Origin: Candidatus Kerfeldbacteria bacterium
GTDB taxonomy: Bacteria > Patescibacteriota > Patescibacteriia > SBBC01
Assembly: GCA_016207275.1 (NCBI GenBank)
Contig: JACQPY010000012.1
Span: 1,706 to 65,705 of the forward strand
Reading direction: 5' to 3'
Length of the DNA stretch: 64,000 nucleotides
The position numbers were made by a program, and so were the translations under genes. This document shows, piece by piece, positions 1,405-51,310 of the stretch; the stretch's first letter is position 1; each line of letters starts with the position of its first letter. Below the pieces are notes generated by a model, which was not told the DNA's origin, made no database searches, and saw only the letters and a program-made list of their open reading frames with translations.

Positions 1405-3765
1405 GTGCCAAAACAATTTTCGATTGAACTCGGCGGTCGAACCCTGACCATCGAGACCGGTCAGTACGCCGCCCAAGCCCACGGCAGCGTCACCGTTCGC
1501 TACGGCGATACGGTGGTGCTCGGTACGGTGGTAATGAGCAGCGAGCAGCGTGAAGGCATCGATTACTTCCCGCTCCTGGTTGATTACGAGGAACGGCTCT
1601 ATGCCGCCGGCAAGATTAAGGGTTCGCGCTTCATTAAGCGCGAGGGTCGGCCGTCCGATGAAGCGATCTTGACCGCCCGTTTGGTCGATCGCTCCATTCG
1701 ACCGCTGTTTAGCGACCAGCTGCGCCACGACGTGCAGGTGGTTATCACCGTCTTGTCGTACGACCAGGAAAACGATCCCGACATCGTCGCCCTGGTGGCG
1801 GCTTCGGCGGCCTTGGCGATTTCTAGAATTCCCTGGGGCGGTCCGATCGGTGCGGCTCGCGTCGGCCGAATTAACAACGAGTGGGTCCTCAACCCGACCA
1901 ACACGGCGCGCGAGAAGAGCGAGCTCGACCTGGTGCTGGCCGGGACCAAGAACGAGGAAGTGATGATTGAGGCGGCGGCCAAGGAAGTGTCGGAGGACGT
2001 CATTGATGAGGCTTTGGTTTTTGCCCAGAAGAACGTCCGCCAGGTTATTCGCTTGATTGAAGACGTGACGAGTGCGGTGGGCGCACCGAAGCAGGAAATT
2101 ATCGACGAGTTCAGCCCGGCAGACCGGGCGCAGCTCAGTCAGGTTGAAGCAAAGGTTCGCGAGATTGTGGGCGATCGTTTGAAGAACGTCCTCAAGACCA
2201 AAGATATGACTGAGCGCGAGGCCAAACGGACGGTCCTGGTGGTTGAGCTTGACGAGAAGCTCAAGGCTGACAGCGAGGTCTCAAAGGAACTGCGGGCGAA
2301 AGGACTGACGATGGTTGATCGGCTGGTCGAGGAAGCTTCTCGCCAGCTGGTGCTGGACGACGGCGTCCGGGTCGACGGCCGGAAACTCGACGAGATTCGG
2401 CCGCTGTCCGCCGCCGTCGGCATCCTGCCGCGAACGCATGGTTCTGGTTTGTTCCAGCGCGGCGAGACGCAAGTATTGTCGATCGTCACCCTGGGCAGCC
2501 CTGGCGACGAGCAGCTGCTCGATACCATGGAGCTGTCCGGTAAGAAGCGTTACATGCACCACTACAACTTCCCTGGCTTTTCGACGGGCGAAGTAAAGCC
2601 GATCCGACAGCCCGCCCGACGGGAAATCGGTCACGGCGCCTTGGCCGAAAAAGCCATGCTCCCGGTCTTGCCGCCGAAAGAGGAGTTCCCCTACACCATC
2701 CGGGTGGTCTCCGAGGTCTTGAGCTCGAACGGCTCGACCTCGCAAGCTTCGATCTGCGGCTCGACCCTAGCGTTGATGGACGCTGGCGTGCCAATTACGG
2801 CACCGGTCGCCGGCATTTCCATGGGGTTAATTACCAATCACCAGACCAAGGAACACAAGCTCCTGACCGATATTCAGGGCTTTGAAGACCACTACGGCGA
2901 CATGGACTACAAGGTCGCCGGCACAACCAAGGGCGTGACCGCCATCCAACTCGACATCAAGCTTGGCGGCATTCCGCATCAGGTTTCCGTTGAGGTCTTG
3001 GCTGGCGCTCAGAAAGCCCGCGAACAGATACTGGCCGTGATGCGCAAAGCCATTGCCGAACCGCGGGCTGAACTATCGCCGTACGCGCCGCGCATCGTCT
3101 CCATCCAGATTGCTCCGGATAAGATACGCGAAGTCATCGGTAAGGGAGGCGAAACGATTAACAAGATTATTGACGAGTGCGACGGTCCGGACGTCACCAA
3201 GATCGATATCGAAGACTCTGGTTTGGTAATGGTCACCTCGCACAATCAAGAAATGTCCGACCGGGCGATCGCCTGGATTCAGAACTTGACCCGTGAAATT
3301 CAACCGGGTGAAATCATTGCGGGCACGGTCAGCCAGATTGTCAAAGACCGGATGAGCGGTAAGGAGATTGGCGCGGTGGTTGATCTCTTTCCGGGTAAGG
3401 ACGGTATGGTCCACATTTCCGAACTGGCGATTAACCACGTACCCTCGGTATCTGACGTGGTCAAGATCGGCGACAAGGTCAAAGTCAAAGTGGTCGAAGT
3501 TGATAAGGAGCGCGGGCGCATCTCGTTGTCCATGAAGCAGCTCGATCCGAACTATGACCCGAACGCCTTTCCGCCGCGCGATCGGAATGGCGGACGCGGC
3601 GGCTTCGGTCGCGGGCCGCGCTTCGGCGGGGGGTTCCGTCGCGGGGGCGATCGCGGCGGATTTAGCCGTGACCGTGGACCGCGTCGAGAGTTCCGACGCG
3701 ACGACCGGCCGCGCGGAGACGGCGGACCAACGATTGATCCGCTCAACCCAATGAGTGATATGTAA
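1405..3765 (+). CDS. pnp: Polyribonucleotide nucleotidyltransferase (PNPase) with KH and S1 domains and an RGG/Arg-Gly-rich C-terminal extension
   Basis: 786 aa. Two RNase PH-like domains, then a KH-like segment (IGKGGETINKI) and an S1 domain, then the tail GGRGGFGRGPRFGGGFRRGGDRGGFSRDRGPRREFRRDDRPRGDGG. GTG start preceded by AGAGGA. Confidence 0.95.
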   Translation: MPKQFSIELGGRTLTIETGQYAAQAHGSVTVRYGDTVVLGTVVMSSEQREGIDYFPLLVDYEERLYAAGKIKGSRFIKREGRPSDEAILTARLVDRSIRPLFSDQLRHDVQVVITVLSYDQENDPDIVALVAASAALAISRIPWGGPIGAARVGRINNEWVLNPTNTAREKSELDLVLAGTKNEEVMIEAAAKEVSEDVIDEALVFAQKNVRQVIRLIEDVTSAVGAPKQEIIDEFSPADRAQLSQVEAKVREIVGDRLKNVLKTKDMTEREAKRTVLVVELDEKLKADSEVSKELRAKGLTMVDRLVEEASRQLVLDDGVRVDGRKLDEIRPLSAAVGILPRTHGSGLFQRGETQVLSIVTLGSPGDEQLLDTMELSGKKRYMHHYNFPGFSTGEVKPIRQPARREIGHGALAEKAMLPVLPPKEEFPYTIRVVSEVLSSNGSTSQASICGSTLALMDAGVPITAPVAGISMGLITNHQTKEHKLLTDIQGFEDHYGDMDYKVAGTTKGVTAIQLDIKLGGIPHQVSVEVLAGAQKAREQILAVMRKAIAEPRAELSPYAPRIVSIQIAPDKIREVIGKGGETINKIIDECDGPDVTKIDIEDSGLVMVTSHNQEMSDRAIAWIQNLTREIQPGEIIAGTVSQIVKDRMSGKEIGAVVDLFPGKDGMVHISELAINHVPSVSDVVKIGDKVKVKVVEVDKERGRISLSMKQLDPNYDPNAFPPRDRNGGRGGFGRGPRFGGGFRRGGDRGGFSRDRGPRREFRRDDRPRGDGGPTIDPLNPMSDM

Positions 3766-3821: not shown

Positions 3822-3835
3822 GTTATGATAAAAAG

Positions 3836-4393
3836 GTGATCATCACCATCAGCGGCACGCCGGGGTCGGGCAAGAGCACCATCGGTCAGATGCTGGCCCG
3901 ACGACTGCGGTACCGACGAGTTGACATCGGCCAGATTCGGCGGCGACTGGCCAAAAAACGTGGCCTAACGCTCGAACAGTACACCGCCTTGAGCGAGACT
4001 GATCCGCGCTACGACCGATTGGTTGACGATTACCAGCGCCGCCTCGGCCGCCGCCGTAAAAACTACATCATGGAAGGGCGTCTGTCGTTCCACTTCATTC
4101 CCCGTTCGTTCAAGATTTTTCTGTACGTCTCACCGACCGTTGGTGCACAGCGGGTTTGGCGCGACATCAAGCTCCGTCGTTCGCGCAACGAAGGTCGTCG
4201 CTTAACCAGTTTGTCTCGCGTGGCCGCTTCACTTCGGCGACGGATGAAGAGCGACCGACAGCGGTATCAGCAGTACTACGGTCTCAACCCATTCACCAGG
4301 GACCATTACGATCTTTACCTCGATACCTCAAAACTTAGGCCACGGCAGGCGTTTAAGGTTGTTTGGCAAGCGGTTCAGGCGAAACTTAGATAA
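3836..4393 (+). CDS. Cytidylate kinase-like P-loop NMP kinase
   Basis: 185 aa. N-terminal ISGTPGSGKST P-loop. Size and pattern fit the short (archaeal-type) CMP kinase family. Confidence 0.55.
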   Translation: MIITISGTPGSGKSTIGQMLARRLRYRRVDIGQIRRRLAKKRGLTLEQYTALSETDPRYDRLVDDYQRRLGRRRKNYIMEGRLSFHFIPRSFKIFLYVSPTVGAQRVWRDIKLRRSRNEGRRLTSLSRVAASLRRRMKSDRQRYQQYYGLNPFTRDHYDLYLDTSKLRPRQAFKVVWQAVQAKLR

Positions 4394-4410
4394 CTGAAGA
4401 TATCCACAAT

Positions 4411-4439
4411 TTGACACTGGTGTACGTGCGTGCTATACT
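4411..4439 (+). promoter_or_regulatory. Strong sigma70-like promoter TTGACA-17-TATACT
   Basis: Perfect -35 at 4411-4416, 17-nt spacer, TATACT at 4434-4439. Shares the GTGCTATA context with the promoter at 18451. Confidence 0.6.
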
Positions 4440-4445
4440 AGCGGC

Positions 4446-4830
4446 AGCTCGTAAAAATATGAAAAAGTATGATGGTCGAAGAGCTCTGGCGCTTGAGAGG
4501 CGACAGCGCTTCTCGACTATCCGTATCGAGGGTTTCCGAGACCCTGAAACAAAACAAAATTTGGGTGTTCTGCTGTCCCATTTATGGGCGGCGGATTCAC
4601 CAGAAGGACGGTCGAGAAAACGCGCTCATTCTAGACTCGGATACGAATCGAGCATTAGCTTCTAAGGCCGTGATCGCCTTGGCTGCGATGCGATGCACCG
4701 AAGTGAGCCGGCTCGGCGCATGGTATCGCGGCCACGGCGTTAGCCTCAGGAGCTTCAGGGCGCGTTTGGCCTCAATTTTCTATATTCCCCATTTGGGGAG
4801 GGGGCGCACAACGCGCCCTCTTCCTTTATT
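4446..4830 (+). ncRNA. Candidate ~385-nt non-coding transcript (unclassified) or long structured leader, bounded by a strong promoter and a GC hairpin
   Basis: No convincing protein ORF. The two track ORFs overlap in different frames, start upstream of the promoter, and have Arg-rich, unprotein-like composition. Several internal hairpins. Does not match RNase P, tmRNA or SRP conserved motifs by eye. Confidence 0.3.
4797..4830 (+). terminator. GC-rich hairpin (GGGCGC-acaac-GCGCCC) followed by TCTTCCTTTATT; candidate intrinsic terminator or attenuator just upstream of lspA
   Basis: Stem-loop plus T-rich tail read from the sequence. The T tract is short. Confidence 0.4.
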
Positions 4831-4860
4831 GAGAACGCAGTCAGTGGTATAGATGATGGT

Positions 4861-5310
4861 ATGAGGTATGGCCGTCAGGCTGCCGGGTTAGTGGCGCTCG
4901 GGCTGGTCGGTTTTGTGATTGATCGGGGGCTGAAGGCCTTAGCCCTGGCTGGCCAGACGTTCGGACCGGCTGACGGCGGGGTACGGTTCGAGCTGTTTCC
5001 CAATCCGGACATTGGTTTTAGCCTCCGCTTTCCCGCCGCGGCTAGTTTGCTGTTAATACCGATGGCCTTAATGGCATTCGTCTGGCTCGGCTGGCGGTGG
5101 TGGCGACGCGGTGATCTGGTTCGTTCAGCCGCGACGATGGTGATCATCATGTCCGCGGTCAGCAACTACCTCGATCGGCTCAGACATGGCTACGTAGTTG
5201 ACTACGTCAGCCTCGGCACCTGGTTTCCCGTATTCAACTTGAGCGACGTGGTGATTGTCTGCGGCTTGGTCTTGATGGCGGTGGCCGCAAAAAGGAAGTT
5301 AGGTAGTTAG
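4861..5310 (+). CDS. lspA: Lipoprotein signal peptidase (signal peptidase II)
   Basis: 149 aa, 4 TM. Conserved SNYLDR, VVDY and FNLSD motifs of LspA. Confidence 0.85.
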   Translation: MRYGRQAAGLVALGLVGFVIDRGLKALALAGQTFGPADGGVRFELFPNPDIGFSLRFPAAASLLLIPMALMAFVWLGWRWWRRGDLVRSAATMVIIMSAVSNYLDRLRHGYVVDYVSLGTWFPVFNLSDVVIVCGLVLMAVAAKRKLGS

Positions 5311-5400
5311 GGGTTAGGTTGCTAGGGCCATTAGAAGAGTGGTTAGTGGTTAGTAGGGAGTAGTGAGCATGAGGTGTTTGGTGTAAGAAGGTCAGTAGCA
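5296..5400. repeat. Degenerate TTAGG/GTTAG purine-rich tandem repeat tract overlapping the lspA stop codon
   Basis: gttaggtagttaggggttaggttgctagggccattagaag...ggttagtggttagtagggagtag. Same family as the tracts at 7024-7068, 7454-7500 and 51172-51262. Confidence 0.5.
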
Positions 5401-5513
5401 GGGGATGAATACAAGAATTGTTCATCGGGCAACAAGGGCTTGACAGGTTGACTGGCATGGTCTAGGCTTTACCGTAGACATTCGCGTGGCGCTGATTGGA
5501 GCCGCGCGTTTTC

Positions 5514-7028
5514 ATGCTTGCCCGCGTTACGACCGCGGCGGTGGTCGGAATCGAGGCCGAACCGATTACCGTTGAGGCCGACATTACCAGCAACGTGCCG
5601 AAGTTCTTCATGGTCGGTTTGCCGGATACCGCGGTGACCGAGGCGCAAGAGCGCATCCGTTCAGCCATTAAGAACACGCCGGGTGTTGACTGGCCGTTGC
5701 AGCGAATCACCATCAACCTGGCGCCGGCTGACCTGCGCAAAGAAGGGACGGGTTTTGATTTGGCGTTGGCGATGGCGATCGTTTGTGCCCGCGGTGACGC
5801 ACCGCTGCCTCCCGACAGCACCTGCTTTCTCGGTGAGCTAAGCTTAGAAGGGAAGCTGCGACCGACCAGCGGCGTCCTGCCGATTGTCGCCTGTTTGCGC
5901 GACCGCGGCGTCGACACGTTTATCGTGCCTGAGCCGAATGCGGCCGAGGCGGGGTTGGTCCACGGGGTAACCGTTTTTCCGGCGCAAACCCTCCGCGACG
6001 TCGTCCGCCACGTCCGCGGCAGGCGATTACTCGATCCGTACGTGCCGACGGCGTCGACCGTCGCGGCCTCGGCGCCGGGCGTTGATCTGGCTGATATTGC
6101 CGGACAGCCGCAGGCCAAGCGCTGCCTGGAAATCGCCGCGGCCGGCGGCCACAACGTCCTGTTGTCCGGGCCGCCGGGCTCAGGCAAGACCCTGCTGGCC
6201 CGGGTCTTATCGGGCATTTTACCGCCGCTGACCGATCCGGAAGCCTTGGAAGTAACCAGGATTTACAGCGTCGCCGGCCTGGTTGATCCCGATCAGCCGC
6301 TCCTGGTCGAACGTCCATTCCGCAGTCCGCACCATACGGCCTCAACCGTGGCTGTGGTCGGCGGCGGATCGTCGCCTCGGCCCGGCGAAATCACGCTGGC
6401 GCATCGCGGCGTTCTGTTTTTGGACGAATTTCCTGAGTTTCCTCGGGCCGTCCTGGAAGCGCTGCGTCAGCCGCTCGAAGACGGGTTTGTCAGCGTCAGT
6501 CGGGCCCAGGCCAGTGTTCGGTTTCCGGCTCGCTTCACGCTGTTGGCCAGTCAAAACCCTTGTCCGTGCGGCTACCTCGGCGATTCGGCGCACCGTTGTC
6601 GTTGCACGCCGTCGCAACTCGAACGCTACCGCCGGCGCGTATCCGGGCCGTTGCTTGACCGGATCGACTTGCACTGTCTCGTGCCGCGGCTGCCGCCCGA
6701 GGATTTGGAAGCAAAAGTGAAGTCAGAACCGTCAAGCGCGGTTCGCGATCGCGTCGTGCTGGCCCGAAAACGGCAGCAGCAGCGGTTCGTCGGCACCGAG
6801 CTGATTGCCAATGCGGAAATGCGGTTGGTCGAGTTGAAGCATTACTGCGCCTTGGATGACGAAACGTTGCAGCTATTGCGGTCAGCGGCCAGTGTGTTGC
6901 AGCTGTCCGGCCGCGCCTACCATCGGGTGATGCGCGTGAGTCGGACGATTGCCGATTTGGAAGGTGCTGAGCGAATTGACAGTCAACACGTGGCCGAGGC
7001 GTTGCAGTATCGGCAGCGGGCTGGGTAA
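5514..7028 (+). CDS. yifB: YifB/ComM family Mg-chelatase-like AAA+ ATPase
   Basis: N-terminus MLARVTTAAVVGIEAEPITVEADI, Walker A LSGPPGSGKT, C-terminal Mg-chelatase ChlI-like domain. An upstream TTG at 5496 is possible, but ATG 5514 matches the family N-terminus. Confidence 0.9.
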   Translation: MLARVTTAAVVGIEAEPITVEADITSNVPKFFMVGLPDTAVTEAQERIRSAIKNTPGVDWPLQRITINLAPADLRKEGTGFDLALAMAIVCARGDAPLPPDSTCFLGELSLEGKLRPTSGVLPIVACLRDRGVDTFIVPEPNAAEAGLVHGVTVFPAQTLRDVVRHVRGRRLLDPYVPTASTVAASAPGVDLADIAGQPQAKRCLEIAAAGGHNVLLSGPPGSGKTLLARVLSGILPPLTDPEALEVTRIYSVAGLVDPDQPLLVERPFRSPHHTASTVAVVGGGSSPRPGEITLAHRGVLFLDEFPEFPRAVLEALRQPLEDGFVSVSRAQASVRFPARFTLLASQNPCPCGYLGDSAHRCRCTPSQLERYRRRVSGPLLDRIDLHCLVPRLPPEDLEAKVKSEPSSAVRDRVVLARKRQQQRFVGTELIANAEMRLVELKHYCALDDETLQLLRSAASVLQLSGRAYHRVMRVSRTIADLEGAERIDSQHVAEALQYRQRAG

Positions 7029-51171: not shown

Positions 51172-51262
51172 GGTTAGGTCTTAGGAAATTAGGAAGTTAG
51201 GTTTTAGGGGATTAGGGAATTAGGGGTTAGGAAATTAGGCAGTTAGGAAGTTAGGTTGTTAG
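51172..51262. repeat. Tandem array of about 13 TTAGG units separated by 1-3 purine-rich nt (degenerate telomere-like (TTAGG)n)
   Basis: ggTTAGGtcTTAGGaaaTTAGGaagTTAGGttTTAGGGgaTTAGGGaaTTAGGGgTTAGGaaaTTAGGcagTTAGGaagTTAGG, read directly. Confidence 0.75.
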
Positions 51263-51265
51263 CAA

Positions 51266-51310
51266 TAAAAAGAAAGCCCGTGAGCACGGAGTTGAACCAT
51301 GCGCACGGGC
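51266..51310 (-). terminator. Hairpin (GCCCGTG-21 nt-CACGGGC) followed on the minus strand by TTTCTTTTT; candidate terminator of the minus-strand zinc-ribbon gene
   Basis: Read directly. The loop is large, so stability is moderate. Confidence 0.45.

Follow-up and report, generated by a model that had tools for sequence, protein, structure and literature searches.

A candidate stand-alone structured RNA encoded between cmk and lspA in Kerfeldbacteria

What is kept in a 450-bp interval that opens with a near-consensus promoter and ends with a GC-rich hairpin, in a bacterium whose intergenic regions are usually very short? This question is raised by positions 4411–4860, between the genes cmk and lspA, of a 64,000-nucleotide stretch of Candidatus Kerfeldbacteria DNA (contig JACQPY010000012.1), the whole of which is referred to below as the window. 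An earlier note, made from the letters of the sequence, had offered three explanations: an unclassified structured small RNA (sRNA), a long leader or attenuator of lspA, or a hidden basic protein of about 70 amino acids (aa). The analysis described here favours the first of these, weakens the second and rejects the third. On balance, we consider it probable that positions 4411–4830 constitute the gene of a stand-alone, highly structured non-coding RNA of about 385 nt. The element is conserved, covarying and apparently non-coding, is framed by a promoter and a terminator of its own, both predicted, and matches no Rfam family. It represents a new RNA family of narrow distribution.

Conservation, predicted transcript and coding potential

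The window can be assigned to the Candidate Phyla Radiation (CPR; Patescibacteria), because its LspA protein (4861–5310, Peptidase_A8) shares 100% identity with one from a Candidatus Kerfeldbacteria metagenome-assembled genome. Homologous loci were fetched from genomes and assemblies by way of the LspA family, complemented by one sequence-pattern scan of metagenomes. The search yielded 17 further copies of the element (L003–L009, L011, L012, L018 and L023–L029), or 18 with the copy in the window; judging from the tree, these represent perhaps eight lineages of one clade. All 17 further copies are located between cmk and lspA, in a 400–540-bp gap with no called gene, and the genes beyond these two neighbours differ among the loci. 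The entire element was aligned by nhmmer, with E-values of 1e-69 to 1e-115, and occurs as a single copy in the window. The ensemble from promoter to hairpin that had been noticed in one sequence is therefore kept whole in 17 other contigs and is more than a chance arrangement. The −35 box, the extended −10 box, several internal blocks and the terminator are invariant among the copies. DNA identity to the window element amounts to 68–83%, compared with only 45–74% identity between the LspA proteins, which makes the RNA gene the slowest-evolving part of the locus.

The metagenome scan, performed with the invariant block GAGCA-N2-3-GCTTnnnAGGCCnTGATCG, returned ten loci. One of them (L018) is a true homologue; the other nine were discarded as chance matches within high-GC coding DNA. 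The pattern scan of viral contigs gave no matches. As far as these scans reached, the RNA family appears so far to be confined to the Kerfeldbacteria lineage of the CPR.

The promoter was recognized at 4411–4439 of the + strand, with a −35 box TTGACA (4411–4416), a 17-nt spacer and a −10 box TATACT (4434–4439), the latter preceded by TG at 4431–4432. It matches the sigma-70 consensus (TTGACA/TATAAT) at 11 of 12 positions and includes an extended −10 element (TGcTATACT, 4431–4439). A scan of both strands of the 64 kb revealed three sites at 11 of 12 positions, two of which, including that of the RNA, also carry the extended TG. The site was rightly counted among the best promoters of the window in the earlier note, since it falls within the top three. 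All 18 copies keep TTGACA and TGCTAT(A/G)CT with little or no variation. The element is thus preceded by a conserved promoter of the sigma-70 type, whose activity is predicted, and transcription is predicted to start at about 4446. The first part of the transcript would be a variable 5′ leader (4446–4470), which is poorly conserved apart from a GUUC-like motif near the predicted 5′ end (alignments A3 and A4).

The presumed 3′ end of the RNA lies at an intrinsic-terminator-type hairpin with a U/C-rich tail (4796–4830). The hairpin, GGGAGGGGGCGC-ACAAC-GCGCCCUCUUCC at 4796–4824, is followed by UUUAUU and has a ΔG of −23.4 kcal/mol when folded in isolation; in the 18 copies the values range from −19.9 to −23.8 kcal/mol. 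Its 12-bp stem is 98.5% paired across 17 sequences, with three pairs changed on both sides. The 12 nt on the 3′ side of the core stem are U/C-rich and contain 5–9 U in an interrupted run, and because this run is broken by C the hairpin was not listed by a simple terminator scan. Of the GC hairpin with a T tail described earlier, the hairpin is therefore real, while the tail proves to be interrupted. A smaller hairpin that had been pointed out just upstream (CCCCATTTGGGG, 4787–4798) is present as CCCC-AUUU-GGGG. With its own promoter and its own terminator around conserved non-coding sequence, the element has the layout of a stand-alone structured RNA gene.

Could this sequence nevertheless hide a small protein? 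Open reading frames (ORFs) do exist in the window copy. An 84-aa ORF (4411–4665, + strand) begins at the TTG inside the −35 box, and a 127-aa ORF (4469–4852, + strand) overlaps it; both had been described as starting upstream of the promoter, but the second begins downstream of it. The candidate small basic protein is a 68-aa peptide, MKKYDGRRAL... (4459–4662, + strand), and two small ORFs are also found on the minus strand of the element. None of these possibilities is borne out by comparison. Among the 15 homologous loci examined, no ORF keeps its frame, start, strand or length, and the longest ORFs of the homologues vary in each of these respects. Indels are located in hairpin tips and have lengths that are not multiples of three, and substitutions follow base-pair compensation rather than a codon pattern. 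No Shine-Dalgarno sequence is present, and neither the 68-aa MKKYDG... peptide nor the 127-aa ORF has a Pfam match. We therefore regard the element, on the evidence of the alignments, as non-coding; the probability that it encodes a small basic protein, either as the 68–84-aa MKKYDGRRAL... ORF or as the overlapping 127-aa ORF, is practically negligible, and the hidden protein proposed earlier can be dismissed.

It was also asked whether the element belongs to a catalogued RNA family. None of the 4227 covariance models of Rfam 15 gave a hit at gathering score anywhere in the window (1–64000), where tRNA, tmRNA (transfer-messenger RNA) and rRNA genes are likewise lacking at this threshold; ARAGORN detected neither tRNA nor tmRNA in the window. 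At E ≤ 10, the element region gave only two matches, that of the terminator hairpin to ncr1241 at 25.6 bits and a second that is noise, and a permissive scan of 13 homologous loci returned nothing inside the element. The Rfam comparison suggested in the earlier note thus leaves the element without a catalogued relative, both in the window and in these 13 loci.

Diverged RNase P RNAs that score below the Rfam thresholds, but can still be detected with RF00010, are reported from CPR genomes (PMC8172020). Because such RNAs can escape default thresholds (PMC8172020), all 18 copies were searched for signature motifs with regular expressions. The RNase P motifs CR-I (GGAAAGUC), AAAGUC and ACAGAA (of CR-V) were not found in any copy. 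GGCUUA, which is part of CR-V (ACAGAA...GGCUUA), occurs in four of the 18, within helix P6a of the fold described below. The domain IV motif of the signal recognition particle (SRP) RNA (GGAAGCAGC) and the T-box sequence (GGUGGNACC) are absent from all 18 copies, and neither family gave a model match. The tmRNA T-loop motif is absent from the 18 copies apart from a chance GUUCGAUUC-like match in L024. The impression, gained by eye, that RNase P, tmRNA and SRP signatures are missing is accordingly upheld by Rfam, ARAGORN and the motif searches.

The idea that the element is an extremely diverged RNase P RNA, tmRNA, SRP RNA or 6S RNA missed by the Rfam models draws on its size and strong promoter, which are typical of housekeeping RNA genes, on the sub-threshold RNase P RNAs documented in the CPR (PMC8172020), and on the fact that none of these RNAs was found elsewhere in the 64-kb window. 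It is nonetheless very improbable. Apart from the failure of 4227 families even at E ≤ 10, of ARAGORN and of the essentially absent signature motifs, the helix topology does not correspond to RNase P P1–P4 or to a tRNA-like domain, and the diverged RNase P RNAs mentioned above were caught by RF00010 (PMC8172020). Full-text literature searches found no described non-coding RNA of the CPR or Kerfeldbacteria, nor a described lspA leader, that would correspond to the element. As every membership test that could be run for RNase P, tmRNA, SRP, T-box and Rfam families failed and no description was found, we consider the element a new RNA family, although a known kind of entity.

Predicted fold and alternative pairings

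The sequence 4446–4832 of the + strand folds at −177.5 kcal/mol, with a z-score of −8.25 relative to dinucleotide shuffles; the z-score of the − strand is −5.27. RNAalifold, applied to a MAFFT alignment, predicted 74 pairs, 32 of them with compensatory changes, and independently recovered most helices of our model. Since MAFFT misplaces some indels, helix strands were extracted from each sequence by means of sequence anchors and joined into a gap-free core alignment, A5, comprising 17 distinct sequences and 197 columns, to which the pairing percentages below refer. Standard pairs are formed in 94.2% of the 1155 cells of the main model, a figure favoured by the register of A5, which was set by hand from sequence anchors. 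The comparison of homologous intergenic regions advised in the earlier note did reveal covariation, in that 26 of the 68 pairs in A5 are changed on both sides. The covariation score reaches 0.295, against 0.121 ± 0.008 after shuffling (0 of 500 reach 0.295), and falls to 0.05–0.09 when the partners are slid by 1–3 columns. Invariant U·G pairs (e.g. A5 columns 25–70 and 123–132) would read A·C on the opposite strand, and the + strand is therefore the RNA strand.

The predicted conserved fold has two domains. In its 5′ part, hairpin P1 (4481–4511) is closed by GAGC/GCUU and has a tip variable in sequence and length; its helix P1a is 98.5% paired, and RNAalifold counted many compensatory pairs in P1. 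The 5′ domain would be closed by a long-range helix, M:D, and would hold two hairpins, H3 and H4, with an A-rich linker between them. The 5′ strand of the closing helix is M (CUCGACUAUCC, 4512–4522), for which an alternative partner, U, is considered below; the 3′ strand is D (GGACGGUCGAG, 4606–4616), located inside the invariant block CACCnnAAGGAyGGUyG. M:D is 100% paired in the 17 sequences, and in six of them CU/AG is replaced by UC/GA, i.e. two pairs are changed on both sides. Hairpin H3 (GGGU-UUCCGAG-ACCC, 4530–4544) has a stem that is 98.5% paired, with two covarying pairs. It is followed by the apparently single-stranded linker (UGAAACAAAACAAAA..., 4545–4563), which is 16–25 nt long and A-rich in all copies and for which no pairing partner was found, and then by hairpin H4 (4564–4601), with an invariant base GGUG/CACC (94% paired) and a variable body.

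The 3′ domain is predicted to consist of hairpin P5, the long hairpin P6 with a kink-turn (k-turn) loop resembling a C/D box, and a long terminator hairpin. P5 (GCUC...GAGC, 4624–4653) has an outer stem that is 100% paired and appears as GCAC/GUGC in L027, and an inner stem that differs in sequence and folds in nearly all homologues. A helix CGCUC/GGGCG proposed by RNAalifold, joining the inner part of strand S1 with strand X, was abandoned in favour of P5, since only P5 is compensated in L027. P6 (4658–4753) has the basal helix GCUUCUAAGGC/GCCUCAGGAGC, which leads through a k-turn-like internal loop to an upper helix with a variable tip. Its total length is 64–100 nt, and in 17 of 18 homologues it folds as a single hairpin. 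Pairing amounts to 89.8% in P6a, with four covarying pairs, and to 86.1% in P6c, with eight, which gives 12 for P6 in total. The small hairpin P8 (UUCCCC-AUUU-GGGGAG, 4785–4800, + strand, as are all helices described here) covaries as UUCCCC/GGGGAG, UCCCGU/ACGGGA, UUCCUC/GAGGAG and UUUCCC/GGGAAG. Where the sequence varies, namely at the tips of P1 and P6, in H4 and in the inner stem of P5, the same type of hairpin is nevertheless found in essentially every homologue, and for P1 in all 18.

Two further features suggest a tertiary organization. The H3 loop UUCCGAG (4534–4540) is complementary to the P5 loop (CUCGGAU, 4636–4642), in which CUCGGA (4636–4641) would form six pairs with it in all 17 sequences. 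This kissing helix is compensated twice, as UUGCGAG/CUCGCA (L024 and L005) and as UUCCAAG/CUUGGAA (L027), and it would cross helix M:D, linking both halves of the molecule. The second feature is the internal loop of P6, with a 5′ strand (4666–4676) of the form GGC-C(G/A/U)U-GAU-(C/G)G and a 3′ strand (4739–4745) of the form (C/G)-U(U/G)A-GCC; the loop proper consists of CGUGAU (4669–4674) opposite UUA (4740–4742), and the pair flanking it covaries (C-G to G-C). The box C/D k-turn is built from a C-box (RUGAUGA) and a D-box (CUGA), which form a C-stem, a 3-nt bulge, tandem sheared G·A/A·G pairs and an NC-stem. In sequence, the P6 loop follows this scheme: the C-stem is succeeded by a 3-nt bulge and then by G·A, A·G (in most copies A·U) and U·U. 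All 17 sequences have G·A at 1b·1n, A·(U/G) and U·U are invariant or restricted, and the flanks of the signature GGC-CNU-GAU / U(G|U)A-GCC do not vary. It departs from the box C/D type in having U rather than G at position 2n in 12 of the 17 sequences (G in five); U at 2n is a non-standard variant known from ribosomal Kt-23. Judged by this sequence pattern, the loop is a putative box C/D-type k-turn.

Some strands of the RNA have more than one conserved partner. Strand U (GAUGGUCGAAGAGC, 4471–4484) closes P1 with its last four nucleotides, GAGC, and its first ten are complementary to M. The sequences of U and D (GAUGGUCGA and GGACGGUCGA) nearly repeat one another. U:M together with P1a is 87.4% paired, with three pairs changed on both sides, the position mismatched in M:D being compensated here (U-A, A-U and C-G). 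Strand M is thus predicted to have two conserved, mutually exclusive partners, D or U.

A similar relation was found at the 3′ end. Strand X (AGGGCGCGUUUGGCCUC, 4757–4773) is the 5′ arm of a long 3′ hairpin and pairs with the loop and 3′ arm (T3′) of the terminator. X:T3′, counted over the X part 4757–4766, is 95.3% paired, with six of ten pairs changed on both sides. At the positions that form the loop of the short hairpin, four complementary X:T3′ triplets occur (GUU/AAC, AUU/AAU, GAU/AUC and GGU/ACC), and in L026, where X has G in place of C, the 3′ arm (G to C) and the local 5′ arm (T5′; C to G) have changed to match. The terminator 3′ arm is hence also predicted to have two conserved, mutually exclusive partners, X or T5′. 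The long hairpin runs from X and its extension, with P8 at the tip, down to the terminator 3′ arm. It is the minimum free energy (MFE) structure of the isolated 3′ domain in the four structures printed (window, L007, L011 and L028), the MFE of this domain being −28.6 to −41.8 kcal/mol in the 18 copies. The short and the long 3′ hairpins end at the same base, with a GC helix against the U/C tract, and the interpretation of X:T3′ as a classical antiterminator was abandoned for this reason.

A third pairing, between X and strand S1 (AAAACGC, 4617–4623), was also considered. S1:X is 75.5% paired and has one covarying position (C-G to U-A in L024/L027 and L007/L008), the rest of the helix being broken in L007/L008; at this level of pairing it was retained as a weak alternative and not as a solid third helix. 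Constrained folding of the four combinations of these alternative helices gave, in most homologues, energies only a few kcal/mol apart, which do not decide among them. Because of this and of the conserved alternative partners, the RNA is probably bistable, or folds through a conserved intermediate.

Independent RNA gene, leader or 3′ untranslated region

The expression platforms of riboswitches and attenuators are characterized by conserved pairings that exclude one another, and a cis-acting leader of lspA has to be weighed against an independent RNA gene. As a riboswitch-like or protein-dependent attenuator, the two-domain fold would sense a ligand, a protein or an RNA, and the choices between U:M and M:D and between S1:X, X:T3′ and T5′:T3′ would set termination, and hence read-through into lspA and the yifB/comM-like gene behind it. 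The position of the element is as expected of such a leader: every known copy lies directly upstream of lspA, on the same strand, with 25–50 nt between terminator and ATG. Nearly all copies were ascertained through lspA, so that this constant linkage is in part a product of ascertainment. Both members of each alternative pair are conserved with compensatory changes, and the energies of the four helix combinations would suit a switch. Among known large riboswitches, those of the lysine, cobalamin and T-box classes employ k-turns and kissing loops too.

The details of the 3′ end fit a leader less well. Both conformers place a GC helix at the same base beside the U/C tract, so that it is hard to recognize an antiterminator in either. 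X is paired to the terminator 3′ arm and not, as is normal for antiterminators, to the 5′ arm, and S1:X, which would be needed as an anti-antiterminator, is the poorly paired helix that is broken in several copies. The sensor would measure about 330 nt, and we know of no riboswitch aptamer of that size; nor does any riboswitch or T-box model of Rfam match. The lspA start codon would probably be a poor one within a read-through transcript of 430 nt. The region before lspA also contains a −10-like box of its own (4848–4863, + strand), outside the RNA and 6–7 nt before the ATG at 4861: TATAGA in the window and TAnnnT in most homologues. In most of 15 homologues TAnnnT (TACAGT, TAGGCT, TACCGT and others) is located at −12/−13 (or −15) from the lspA ATG, and a TAnnnT box likewise precedes the cmk start by 6–7 nt in 7 of 11 loci (window 3823–3838 and the corresponding positions of loci among L009–L029). 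Neither gene has a Shine-Dalgarno sequence. These observations suggest that lspA has a separate, leaderless promoter and that the cmk mRNA is likewise leaderless. Leaderless promoters as a genome-wide habit were ruled out, as TAnnnT at −12/−13 showed no enrichment before the 40 long ORFs of the window; the argument accordingly draws on the conservation before lspA and cmk alone, and we consider it a moderate one against a leader. The invariant near-consensus promoter, finally, would be more in keeping with a stable RNA made in abundance than with the leader of a membrane peptidase of low abundance.

The element could also be tied to cmk, as a stabilizing or processing element in the 3′ untranslated region (UTR) of its mRNA or as an sRNA derived from that region. 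In every context seen, cmk is the upstream neighbour. Its stop codon is followed by the −35 box of the RNA after 17 nt in the window (4391–4416) and overlaps this box in L011 (2582–2585) and L026 (1092–1095). As cmk has no room for a terminator of its own, its transcripts must run into the RNA gene and end at the terminator of the latter. An invariant near-consensus promoter inside a 3′ UTR would be needless, though, and the tertiary fold with its kissing and k-turn-like loops goes far beyond the needs of a stabilizing hairpin. This explanation is improbable.

The reading of 4411–4830 as an independent RNA gene is not without difficulties. Besides the location of all copies in front of lspA, the mutually exclusive helices and the hand-set register of A5, these include the poor U tract (UAUCC...) that follows the extended stem in about half of the copies, the lspA box of the window, which is TATAGA and not TAnnnT, and the lack of enrichment of TAnnnT before other genes; the ends that define an RNA of about 385 nt are, moreover, predicted. 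We nevertheless prefer the independent RNA gene to the attenuator because of the shared GC-helix 3′ ends, the −10-like box of lspA and the invariant promoter. The leader option of the earlier note, which gains from the constant position and the alternative pairings and loses by the GC helix in both conformers and by the lspA box, is rather unlikely by comparison, ahead of any connection with cmk.

Genomic setting, proposed role and relation to known RNAs

The RNA element is preceded by genes for PNPase (1405–3765) and an archaeal-type (d)CMP kinase (cmk, 3836–4393; TIGR02173, 97 bits), the latter directly upstream. It is directly followed by lspA, behind which lies a gene for a YifB/ComM-type Mg-chelatase-like ATPase. 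The C-terminus of PNPase (3550–3765) forms a tail of about 70 aa with abundant RGG/RG repeats (GGRGGFGRGPRFGGGFRRGGDRGGF...), which suggests an additional RNA-binding extension unusual among bacterial PNPases.

Immediately before the ATG of the yifB/comM-like gene, a GC hairpin of the type CGCGUGGCGC...GCGCCACG (5483–5516) is followed by UUUUC; it is also found in L011, L012, L025, L026 and L029, and in the window it is preceded by a promoter-like sequence, TTGACA-17-TAGGCT (5441–5469). This hairpin may serve to terminate lspA transcription or to control the start of yifB. Two short spacers on the + strand (5298–5353 and 51174–51270) contain many GTTAG/TTAGG repeats and show a strong skew of G over C: GTTAGGTAGTTAGGG occurs twice, at a spacing of 15 nt, past the lspA stop, and a cluster near 51200 has at least four TTAGG in 80 nt. 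Elsewhere in the window, TTAGG is under-represented. On the minus strand, a near-consensus promoter (TTGACA-16-TATAGT, 11 of 12 positions) lies directly past the stop of a 695-aa gene, in the segment 51978–51640. About 300 nt with no convincing ORF precede an 88-aa ORF (51636–51370), and the first 145 nt or so can form a multi-branch structure closed by GGAGGGGG/CCCCCUCC. No Rfam match was obtained for this segment at E ≤ 10, and the fold of the whole region has a z-score of only −1.57; it may represent another leader or sRNA.

The RNA upstream of lspA resembles several known large RNAs in general design. With the raiA motif RNA, OLE, ROOL, GOLLD and HEARO it shares a length of several hundred nucleotides with many covarying helices, long-range and loop-loop contacts, conserved single-stranded blocks, restriction to a lineage, a promoter and terminator of its own, and a function that cannot be deduced from sequence. 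Unlike them, it shows no sequence or covariance-model similarity to any member of this group, is far narrower in distribution (about 20–30 known copies, from one CPR lineage), strictly single-copy and syntenic (cmk–RNA–lspA), and is not associated with a prophage, tRNA or IscB. The T-box, lysine and cobalamin leaders are similar in lying directly 5′ of a co-oriented gene, in ending with an intrinsic-terminator hairpin, and in combining a k-turn-like loop, a kissing contact and conserved mutually exclusive helices. The Kerfeldbacteria RNA differs from these leaders in several respects: it has no family match at E ≤ 10, T-box sequence or B12 box, its competing strand captures the terminator 3′ arm, yet a helix stays beside the U tract, the downstream lspA carries a leaderless-type promoter signal, and the element is 1.5–2 times larger. 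Bacterial RNase P RNA is comparable in size (about 350–400 nt), in its strong dedicated promoter, in its long-range helices formed by conserved strands and in its loop-loop contacts. In addition to the missing CR-I, CR-V, RF00010, RF00011 or other RNase P matches, the Kerfeldbacteria RNA differs in that M:D spans about 100 nt of the 5′ half, whereas P4 spans the whole molecule.

We propose that the RNA would be transcribed from about 4446 to about 4828 as a discrete, abundant transcript. Termination would be constitutive, through whichever of the two overlapping hairpins forms, because either 3′ structure sets a GC helix against the U/C tract. The RNA might then accumulate as a compact two-domain molecule held together by M:D and the kissing loop, and it would act in trans, most plausibly as the scaffold of a ribonucleoprotein (RNP). 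Candidate sites of contact with proteins or RNAs are the k-turn-like loop, the A-rich linker and the invariant, presumably single-stranded CACCAGAAGGA tract, and competition between U and D for M may give rise to a second conformation. The terminator might in addition insulate the weak leaderless promoter of lspA from the strong promoter upstream.

Genomes of CPR bacteria are about 1 Mb or less in size, with very short intergenic regions. In genomes this compact, a non-coding locus of 450 bp that evolves more slowly than its protein-coding neighbours is likely to be important. To our knowledge, almost no large orphan structured RNAs have been known from the CPR, and large orphan RNAs of such complexity have repeatedly proved to be ribozymes, RNP scaffolds or self-assembling particles. 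A bolder possibility, which we put forward tentatively, is that the RNA may be the first representative of a new class of large bistable structured RNAs essential to CPR bacteria of the Kerfeldbacteria type, either as a two-state subunit of an RNP or ribozyme or as the largest riboswitch-like sensor, coupling a signal to lipoprotein processing through lspA. The conserved mutually exclusive helices make a conformational switch directly testable, and the 18 sequences, together with the predicted structure, provide a curated seed for a covariance model with which the Patescibacteria can be searched.

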